DNA of 33,662 bases from Chlamydiales bacterium (GTDB lineage: Bacteria > Chlamydiota > Chlamydiia > Chlamydiales > JBDQID01), in assembly GCA_047611865.1 (NCBI GenBank), contig JBLFWS010000019.1, forward strand, positions 1 to 33,662, written 5' to 3'. This document shows positions 26,490 through 27,380 of the stretch, in pieces; position 1 is the first letter of the stretch; each line of letters begins with the position of its first letter. The translations under genes and the position numbers were made by a program. The notes under the pieces were generated by a model, which had not been told where the DNA came from, searched no databases, and worked only from the letters and a program-made list of their open reading frames with translations.

Positions 26490-27380
26490 ATGACTTCGAG
26501 TGTAAGTTTGACCTCTATGGCTAAAAAACCTGTTTATCAAGAATTTTTTGATGAATGTGTAGTTCCTGTTCGTCGTAGCCCCATTGATCAATCCCAGGCA
26601 AAAACAGTTGTAGAAAAACGTACTGCTGAGTGTGCAGGGGAAAACTTGAGCAAAGTCGCAGTACAATCACATGCTGGAACAAAGCAAAGAACATTGACTA
26701 TAGTTAACAAGCCTGTTTTAAACGAGGCTGGTCAGCTAACAAAGACAACTCATCTTGTACCCGAACCAAGAAGACGGGAAAGTTCTATAAGTGCTTTTTT
26801 TGCTGACCTGGCATCGCATTTCCCCTGTAATTTGAAAACTAGAATTGCAGAGCAGGAGACTCTAATTGAACAGCAAAGAGGTCTAATAGAAGAACAAAAC
26901 CAGCTTCTAATGAGTTTTAAGGCTGAGACCAGGTCTTTAAAAATATGTCTCAACAGTCAAAGTTCTTCAGCAGAAGAGCTCCTTACTACAGTAACTGACT
27001 TACAAGTTATTATTAACGAAAAAGACCAAAGGATTTCAGAGTTTGCAGCTGACCAGGGAGTAGCCATACCCAATCTTCACGAGTTTTTAAGTGGAACAGA
27101 CGGTTCGCTTCCTTCCAGTCCAAGAAGCCCCGTTGTCCTTGCTGAAACGAAATCGAATGCAAGCAGGCCTGCGAGTCCGTTACCAAGCGTTCAAGGAAAT
27201 ACTTCAGAATTCGAACTGCTAGAGGATTACGGAATGATAAGTTCTGGTGATGAGAGAGGTTTTCGTGCTCCCTCTCCTGTACTTGTAGAAGAAAATATAG
27301 AGTCAGAACTGGCGGCTCAAAATTCAGGATCTGATGAAGGATTTACCATAGTCGATGACTCAGGGGAAATGCTTTCTTGA
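26490..27380 (+). CDS. Hypothetical coiled-coil protein with acidic disordered tail carrying LIR-like motifs, candidate effector
   Basis: AAGGA RBS; S/T-rich N-terminus; central heptad region (LKTRIAEQETLIEQQRGLIEEQNQLL); SP-rich acidic tail with SEFELL and DEGFTIV. Confidence 0.7.
   Translation: MTSSVSLTSMAKKPVYQEFFDECVVPVRRSPIDQSQAKTVVEKRTAECAGENLSKVAVQSHAGTKQRTLTIVNKPVLNEAGQLTKTTHLVPEPRRRESSISAFFADLASHFPCNLKTRIAEQETLIEQQRGLIEEQNQLLMSFKAETRSLKICLNSQSSSAEELLTTVTDLQVIINEKDQRISEFAADQGVAIPNLHEFLSGTDGSLPSSPRSPVVLAETKSNASRPASPLPSVQGNTSEFELLEDYGMISSGDERGFRAPSPVLVEENIESELAAQNSGSDEGFTIVDDSGEMLS

Follow-up and report, generated by a model that had tools for sequence, protein, structure and literature searches.

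A contig of 33,662 nt from a Chlamydiales bacterium (JBLFWS010000019.1, positions 1 to 33,662, assembly GCA_047611865.1; the whole stretch is referred to as the window) encodes P0001, an orphan protein of 296 amino acids (aa) whose predicted disordered tail carries two strings matching, letter for letter, the cores of validated LC3-interacting regions (LIRs). We propose, with a probability of about one in three, that P0001 is a type III-delivered, dimeric, non-enzymatic scaffold, the tail of which would bind host ATG8 through two or three LIRs. The proposal draws on the architecture of the protein, on the fit and conservation of its motifs and on the candidate host-directed genes in the same window.

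Architecture of P0001 and its tail motifs

The P0001 open reading frame (ORF) occupies positions 26490..27380 of the forward strand, stop codon included, exactly as the initial annotation of this DNA had placed it. A Shine-Dalgarno-like AAGGA, read from the sequence (26479..26483, forward strand), ends 6 nt upstream of the ATG, and the overlapping antisense ORFs reach only 57-67 aa. Promoter and terminator scans returned no more sites than shuffled sequences did, and an Rfam scan of the window returned 0 matches. The only homologue of P0001 is P0002, a protein of 298 aa with 54% identity and 100% query cover, aligned from M1 to the C-terminus.

Modeled by AlphaFold2 from an alignment of two rows, P0001 reached a mean predicted local distance difference test (pLDDT) score of 54, with helices at residues 99-110 and 112-189 and a short helix at 196-201. 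The mean pLDDT of the helix was 76-95 per 10-residue block from residue 121 on, and residues 1-98 and 212-296 mostly scored below 50. The first of these segments is a disordered N-terminal arm (residues 1-98, 26490..26783, forward strand), with values below 50 over residues 1-79 and 81-98. The regions that hold the tail motifs (235-281 and 283-290) also scored below 50, a proxy for disorder, and were modeled without secondary structure; the motifs are thus not predicted to be buried in a folded domain, an outcome that the initial annotation had asked to be checked. Altogether, about two thirds of P0001 are predicted to be disordered and form S/P-rich low-complexity sequence of a eukaryote-like kind.

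Residues 112-189 (26823..27056, forward strand) make up a predicted coiled-coil helix, delimited by the AlphaFold2 helix and the heptad count, in which 11 heptads keep a single register. Along the helix, a is occupied by P, I, I, I, L, T, L, A, V, I, I and Q, and d by L, Q, Q, Q, F, L, Q, L, L, K and F; L, I, V, M or F thus occupies 14 of the 23 a and d positions, and 13 of 23 in P0002, in the identical register. In model coiled coils, Ile at a and Leu at d favor dimers, and judging from its heptads P0001 would probably form a dimer. In the tail that follows (residues 190-296), S makes up 17% of the residues, E 11% and P 8.5%; from residue 241 on the net charge is -3 to -5 per 20-residue block. 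Composition, model and heptads therefore agree with the layout first described for this protein, namely a Ser/Thr-rich N-terminus, a coiled coil and an SP-rich acidic tail.

At the N-terminus, residues 2-10 include six Ser/Thr, a level reached by 5 of the 2774 long ORFs of the genome, which served as a crude proxy proteome. Residues 1-17 are free of D and E, and both features together occur in 3 of the 2774. A Ser/Thr-rich, acid-free N-terminus of this kind would be compatible with a type III secretion signal. The highest 19-residue hydropathy in P0001 is 0.52, and hence no hydrophobic segment, signal peptide or transmembrane segment was seen. Scans against Pfam (E up to 0.1) and NCBIfam gave no family match, in keeping with the earlier view that the protein has no recognizable catalytic domain, and a PDB sequence search gave one chance match (E = 1.1). 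The feature neighbors of P0001 in the ESM Atlas were mostly eukaryotic coiled-coil or disordered proteins, a weak lead; the best score (0.91, 162 shared features) is below the level that the tool rates as reliable.

Four strings in P0001 fit the pattern [WFY]xx[LIV]: FADL at F104, FELL at F241 (nt 27210-27221), YGMI at Y247 (nt 27228-27239) and FTIV at F285 (nt 27342-27353), the coordinates of F241 and F285 being precisely those originally assigned. With the published expression for extended LIR motifs (xLIR; PMC5119064) as a regular expression, two of them matched, SEFELL at residue 239 and EGFTIV at 283, and YGMI and FADL did not. By eye, the corresponding P0002 motifs, SDFELV and EEFTIV, likewise fit. 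Ser/Thr and acidic residues lie upstream of both P0001 motifs and acidic residues downstream. The initial annotation had named FELL as the core of FAM134B and GFTIV as that of TBC1D5, and the table in Fig. 1 of Rogov et al. 2017 (PMC5538626) bears this out, listing GDDFELLDQ for FAM134B 452-460 and DSGFTIVSP for the second LIR of TBC1D5 (LIR2, 785-793). The P0001 cores are therefore identical to validated ones: FELL to that in DDFELL of FAM134B, and GFTIV to that in SGFTIV of TBC1D5 LIR2 (PMC5538626; PMC5119064 Table 1).

Two xLIR matches appeared in 3.7% of whole-protein shuffles and in 0.5% of tail shuffles (20,000 each). When at least three D/E/S/T were demanded in the five residues upstream and at least two D/E, with no K/R, in the four downstream, 26 of the 2774 proxy proteins had one such acid-flanked motif and three had two. 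P0001 is the sole protein of at most 400 aa among the latter, the other two measuring 3074 and 1219 aa. Over 30 shuffles of the proteome, the mean number of proteins of at most 400 aa with two acid-flanked motifs was 0.07, and 2 of the 30 gave at least one. These counts suggest that the P0001 motifs are only partly more than chance.

Two other proteins of the genome with an acid-flanked xLIR have no Pfam family: a 167-aa protein (G000:C204:3489-3992), in which the motif DDNESFQSICTEE lies in an acidic stretch, and a 123-aa protein (G000:C6:24843-25214).

Comparison with P0002 showed that the tail motifs lie in islands of conservation. Motif island 1 (residues 236-250, GNTSEFELLEDYGMI; 27195..27239, forward strand) contains the xLIR SEFELL at F241 and, six residues on, the YGMI core at Y247; its counterpart in P0002 is TSDFELVEDYGVL, with identity at 10 of 13 columns over residues 236-248 (TS[ED]FEL[LV]EDYG). 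Motif island 2 (residues 279-293, SGSDEGFTIVDDSGE; 27324..27368, forward strand) contains the xLIR EGFTIV at F285 and corresponds to SGSDEEFTIVEDSGE, with 13 of 15 columns identical (SGSDE[GE]FTIV[DE]DSGE). All three aromatic cores of the tail are retained in P0002, FELL as FELV, YGMI as YGVL and FTIV unchanged. Together, the two islands are identical at 23 of 28 columns. The tail as a whole is identical at 63 of 115, and the stretch between the motifs at 10 of 35, with two indels; shuffling the identity flags within the tail gave a permutation p of 7e-4 for the two islands, the windows being chosen post hoc. By region, the two proteins share 52% identity in the N-terminal arm, 59% in the helix and 55% in the tail. 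The expectation that the motifs would form conserved islands in a divergent tail was thus borne out in the one homologue, as support and not as proof.

Conserved islands also occur elsewhere in the protein. The N-terminal island KKPxYQEF[FI]DECVVPV (residues 12-27; 26523..26570, forward strand) reaches 11 of 13 identical residues in 13-residue windows, and the tail-start island IPxLHEFLxGTDGSLPxSPRS (residues 193-213; 27066..27128, forward strand) has 12 of 14 identical residues over 200-213 and 11-12 of 13 in 13-residue windows. The N-terminal island may be a chaperone-binding or other docking site. Its EFFDECV string, EFIDECV in P0002, corresponds to positions 1-4 of the motif of two phenylalanines in an acidic tract (FFAT), with E instead of a small residue at position 5 and with the basic KKPVYQ and no acidic tract upstream; judged by eye against the consensus, an EFFDAxE-type core after an acidic tract (general definition in PMC9286742), P0001 was for these reasons rejected as a VAP binder of the FFAT type. 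Acidic dileucine, clathrin box, gamma-adaptin ear (GAE)-binding and SUMO-interacting motif (SIM) assignments of the P0001 islands were rejected in the same manner, as none fit its consensus by eye.

Distribution and genomic context

P0001 and P0002 are the two known members of a lineage-restricted chlamydial family. A search of 5.8 billion proteins (1217 candidates) returned P0001 itself and P0002, and phmmer against 1.84 billion representatives returned, besides P0001, only P0003. The latter, a 1069-aa protein with ten repeats of ~100 aa, was discarded as a homologue: a single 27-bit match (18 of 56 residues identical) recurs with each repeat and inflates the score, making it an artefact. P0001 was matched in 1 of 41 genomes, its own. 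An order-wide profile search of 400 chlamydial genomes, one of which (G093) went unscored, gave three matches, that is, the own genome and two weak ones that we dismissed as coiled-coil noise; one (G222, 18.9 bits) falls within a 557-aa coiled-coil ORF resembling inclusion membrane (Inc) proteins, and the reading frame of the other (17.6 bits) is broken by two stops. Pattern scans of genome contigs (46 matches) and of metagenome contigs (592 matches) yielded none that was confirmed.

The gene downstream of P0001, 56 nt away, codes for P0004, a small membrane protein of 156 aa (27436..27906, forward strand). It has a Ser-rich N-terminus and, by hydropathy, two hydrophobic lobes at about residues 53-75 and 82-101 joined by the loop GMEEEK, with windows of up to 1.72. 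This layout is Inc-like, resembling that of chlamydial inclusion membrane proteins, and P0001 itself has no such bilobed domain. P0004 has a single homologue, P0005 (57% identity), and the tails of both keep GRGDE[SD]F[SC][IT]LLRNSF, which includes an acidic F-x-x-L string outside the xLIR pattern.

The 3' end of the P0004 gene overlaps by 4 nt the GTG start of a gene for a D-cysteine-desulfhydrase-family pyridoxal phosphate (PLP) enzyme. Of 61 genomes, 14 carry this PLP-enzyme gene, the own genome among them, and in the 11 relatives inspected, where loci were compared over 1.5-kb flanks by ORF ends and xLIR counts, its neighbors differ from those at the P0001 locus. Because relatives are few and the PLP enzyme is flanked by other genes elsewhere, P0001 and the gene downstream of it look like a lineage-specific insertion.

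The assembly (3.59 Mb in 272 contigs, 95.5% complete) is chlamydial and has an injectisome gene. It contains seven matches to the nucleotide transporter (NTT) family PF03219, all above the cut-off, and one to SctJ/YscJ (164.3 bits versus a curated cut-off of 161.95). The window also encodes a eukaryote-type USP/UCH ubiquitin hydrolase, a USP-type deubiquitinase (16954-18285, forward strand; PF00443, E 5e-37). A protein of 673 aa (20055-22076, forward strand) has part of a eukaryote-type protein-kinase domain (PF00069, 33 bits), and two more genes of the window code for a histone-deacetylase-family protein (5017-5994, forward strand; PF00850, E 1e-97) and for one with a Gln_deamidase_2 domain (32019-33185, reverse strand; PF18626, E 4e-12). 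Hydrolases, kinase-like proteins, deacetylases and deamidase-like proteins of these types are probably often host-directed in chlamydiae; the ubiquitin hydrolase and the kinase-like protein are candidates for such a role, and the gene context supports a host-directed role of P0001.

A myo-inositol catabolism cluster (6268-14313, forward strand) is a notable metabolic capacity for a chlamydia; it comprises an IolB-like protein, an IolC/IolJ-type kinase-aldolase fusion, IolD, a TIM-barrel protein, an aldehyde dehydrogenase and a GFO/IDH/MocA oxidoreductase. Short contigs (151-270 nt) identical to parts of positions 26300-27950, with 0 differences, were found in one further ice-metagenome run and in one seawater-metagenome run, neither of which is among the three possible source runs. 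No variants were found in four sequencing runs.

A search of the 400 chlamydial genomes with the Pfam ATG8 model gave a single match (45 bits, cut-off 27), P0006, a divergent ATG8-family protein of 154-161 aa (L011:1324-1809, forward strand; G048:C3, match at 83506-83757). It lies on a 182-kb contig of a 2.9-Mb genome (G048) from the same order and a different family. P0006 shares 32-39% identity with eukaryotic ATG8s and keeps the HKDADGFLYVT block. A Pro-rich segment extends its N-terminus and 12 residues are inserted; because the C-terminal Phe-Gly is missing, P0006 is probably not lipidatable. Its low-confidence AlphaFold2 model (pLDDT 54), which was folded with ATG8 rows and is therefore partly circular as a comparison, matched Atg8 structures in Foldseek with E 1e-9 and a target template-modeling (TM) score of 0.77. 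The gene after P0006 looks by eye like one for a PPP-type phosphatase. Among the titles returned by literature searches, none was that of a paper on this chlamydial ATG8 homologue.

Proposed function and competing explanations

Under the ATG8 proposal, P0001 would be delivered into the host cytosol, most likely by the type III secretion system. Its Ser/Thr-rich, acid-free N-terminus, the presence of SctJ in the genome and the absence of a signal peptide or transmembrane segment are indirect pointers to such access to a eukaryotic cytosol. The coiled coil would serve as a dimeric scaffold, and the disordered acidic tail would bind host ATG8-family proteins through FELL at F241 and FTIV at F285, perhaps also through YGMI at Y247. 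A dimer would then carry four to six motifs and could bind membrane-bound ATG8 with high avidity. The result might be a decoy that competes with host xenophagy receptors, or a tether of ATG8-positive membranes to the inclusion, possibly by way of the Inc-like P0004 or the conserved N-terminal islands.

A specific two-gene form of the tether, in which P0004 resides in the inclusion membrane as the docking site of the coiled-coil dimer and the four to six LIRs coat the inclusion with host ATG8 or capture ATG8-positive membranes, appears improbable. If true, no short-motif mimic directed at ATG8 would have been described in Chlamydiae before it, and the ATG8 homologue of G048 would suggest that the ATG8-LIR interface has been a target more than once in the phylum. 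The lineage being one of sea ice or seawater, presumably with protist hosts, this strategy would also be old.

Several findings weigh against the proposal. The xLIR pattern is very common, at least one match occurring in 1225 and at least two in 408 of the 2774 proxy proteins, as the initial annotation had anticipated in warning that short motifs arise by chance. P0001 had already been seen when the acidic-flank filter was defined and the conservation windows were picked. Ten of the 25 other single-motif proteins were checked; eight have Pfam domains, and in six of the ten the acid-flanked match lies within a housekeeping domain (Cpn10/GroES, RsfS, dCTP deaminase, dual-specificity phosphatase, SpoU and flagellin). 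Single LIR look-alikes plainly arise by chance. The conservation comes from one homologue at 54% identity, and the islands at residues 12-27, 111-123, 173-184 and 193-213 are equally conserved, which leaves the motif islands not unique. We infer secretion from N-terminal composition; HrpJ/CopN was not found in the genome, the HrpJ model also being unmatched in 14 of 14 control genomes, and the two secretin matches are both below the cut-off. Neither a cargo-binding nor a membrane-binding domain was found in P0001 by Pfam or NCBIfam.

This last result bears on the role originally suggested, that of an autophagy-receptor mimic. Because no cargo-binding module was found, P0001 lacks one defining feature of selective autophagy receptors; 'receptor mimic' is therefore more than the data bear out, and 'LIR-bearing adaptor or decoy' describes it more safely.

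Genome-wide, acid-flanked xLIRs total 29, versus 16.4 ± 4.2 in the 30 shuffles. Because six of the ten checked cases lie inside housekeeping domains, this excess may reflect clustered acidic segments, not function.

Two further explanations are nearly as likely as ATG8 binding. In one, P0001 would be a secreted, host-directed scaffold whose islands bind other host partners, and its likeness to LIRs would be coincidental. Such partners might be adaptor or trafficking proteins, VAP (bound by the EFFDECV island) or kinases for which the SP sites are substrates. This explanation shares the arguments from gene context and disorder, and it would account for the fact that, of at least five conserved islands, only two are LIR-like; several S-P sites, the YxxΦ-type string YGMI/YGVL and the FFAT-like N-terminal core fit it as well, as does the frequency of LIR-like strings by chance. 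However, the FFAT-like core is deficient and the acidic dileucine, clathrin box, GAE-binding and SIM consensuses are unmatched by eye, while both tail motifs equal validated LIR cores letter for letter.

In the other, P0001 would remain in the bacterial cytoplasm as a structural or regulatory coiled-coil protein, perhaps together with P0004; its islands would contact bacterial partners and its motifs would be due to chance. Bacteria do have coiled-coil proteins with disordered ends, acid-flanked xLIRs occur in plainly bacterial housekeeping proteins, the bilobed P0004 could equally be a bacterial inner-membrane protein, and the gene sits among metabolic genes (a class-V aminotransferase, the D-cysteine desulfhydrase-family PLP enzyme and a 2-oxoglutarate oxygenase). 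Yet the PLP-enzyme gene has other neighbors in the 11 relatives inspected, and a two-member family found nowhere else in the 400 chlamydial genomes is typical of host-interaction genes, not of core machinery. The unusually Ser/Thr-rich N-terminus and the large share of predicted disordered, S/P-rich eukaryote-like low complexity also argue against a purely bacterial role. That the P0001 ORF is not a real gene, or is read in the wrong frame, is close to refuted by its full-length homologue of near-equal size (298 versus 296 aa), by the Shine-Dalgarno sequence before the ATG and by the shortness of the ORFs on the opposite strand.

If P0001 binds ATG8, a multivalent motif scaffold without catalytic activity would be a means by which environmental chlamydiae deal with the autophagy of their hosts, and the minimal two-motif peptide would be easily testable in vitro although the organism is uncultured. 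Should P0001 not bind ATG8, it would be a caution that perfect, conserved and disordered LIR look-alikes can lack function.

Comparison with known LIR-bearing proteins

Pathogen effectors with functional LIRs or ATG8-interacting motifs (AIMs) exist, RavZ and PexRD54 being examples in passages of PMC8634866 and PMC9907853. PexRD54 of Phytophthora infestans comes closest to the action proposed for P0001: as described in PMC9907853, this effector antagonizes a host cargo receptor and redirects autophagy, and, like the proposed P0001, it is non-enzymatic and binds ATG8 through an AIM near its C-terminus (PDB 5l83). It differs in being an oomycete protein with folded WY domains and one functional AIM (WEIV), whereas P0001 is bacterial and not homologous to it, and combines a predicted coiled coil and disordered arms with two or three motifs of the F/Y type.

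The closest bacterial precedent is RavZ of Legionella pneumophila, which, according to the same passages of PMC8634866 and PMC9907853, uses several LIRs, a tandem N-terminal pair and a C-terminal one, to find membrane ATG8, and whose functional N-terminal core FDLL resembles the FELL of P0001. In contrast to P0001, which has no domain match, RavZ has Ulp-like cysteine protease and phosphatidylinositol 3-phosphate (PI3P)-binding domains, delipidates ATG8 and is delivered by type IV secretion. Pfam, NCBIfam, phmmer and PDB searches gave no domain or sequence relative that P0001 would share with the RavZ family. Because no domain or sequence is shared, P0001 belongs to neither the PexRD54 nor the RavZ family.

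The LIR of FAM134B (RETREG1) lies near the C-terminus of a disordered tail, and NDP52/CALCOCO2, TAX1BP1 and optineurin combine an oligomerizing coiled coil with LIRs in flexible regions, where a phosphorylatable Ser stands upstream of the aromatic residue. P0001 resembles FAM134B in the position of its motifs, and the last three (LIR peptides in PMC5538626) in its predicted coiled coil, in the placement of LIR-like motifs in predicted flexible regions and in the Ser upstream of the aromatic residue. These receptors, however, bind cargo through defined modules such as ubiquitin-binding zinc fingers, UBAN or a galectin-binding region; Pfam and NCBIfam showed no such module in P0001. With FAM134B and TBC1D5 LIR2, P0001 has in common the F-E-L-L and G-F-T-I-V cores that follow acidic or Ser residues (PMC5538626). 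However, FAM134B is a reticulon-type endoplasmic reticulum membrane protein and TBC1D5 a Rab GTPase-activating protein, neither with homology to P0001 beyond cores of 4-5 residues.

Within the chlamydiae, a close parallel is IncV of Chlamydia trachomatis, a type III substrate whose acidic, phosphorylatable tail, as described in PMC9286742, carries short linear motifs of the eukaryotic kind that tether VAP, a host organelle protein, to the inclusion. IncV belongs to the inclusion membrane proteins and its target is VAP, not ATG8, whereas P0001 has no hydrophobic segment and its neighbor P0004 has one. Among the titles returned by literature searches, none described a chlamydial effector with a LIR, and the word 'chlamydia' does not occur in a 2021 review of the field (PMC8634866). 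Pathogens that mimic LIR/AIM motifs include Legionella with RavZ, Phytophthora with PexRD54 and some viruses, and P0001 would add to these an unrelated, catalytically inert variant built on a coiled coil.

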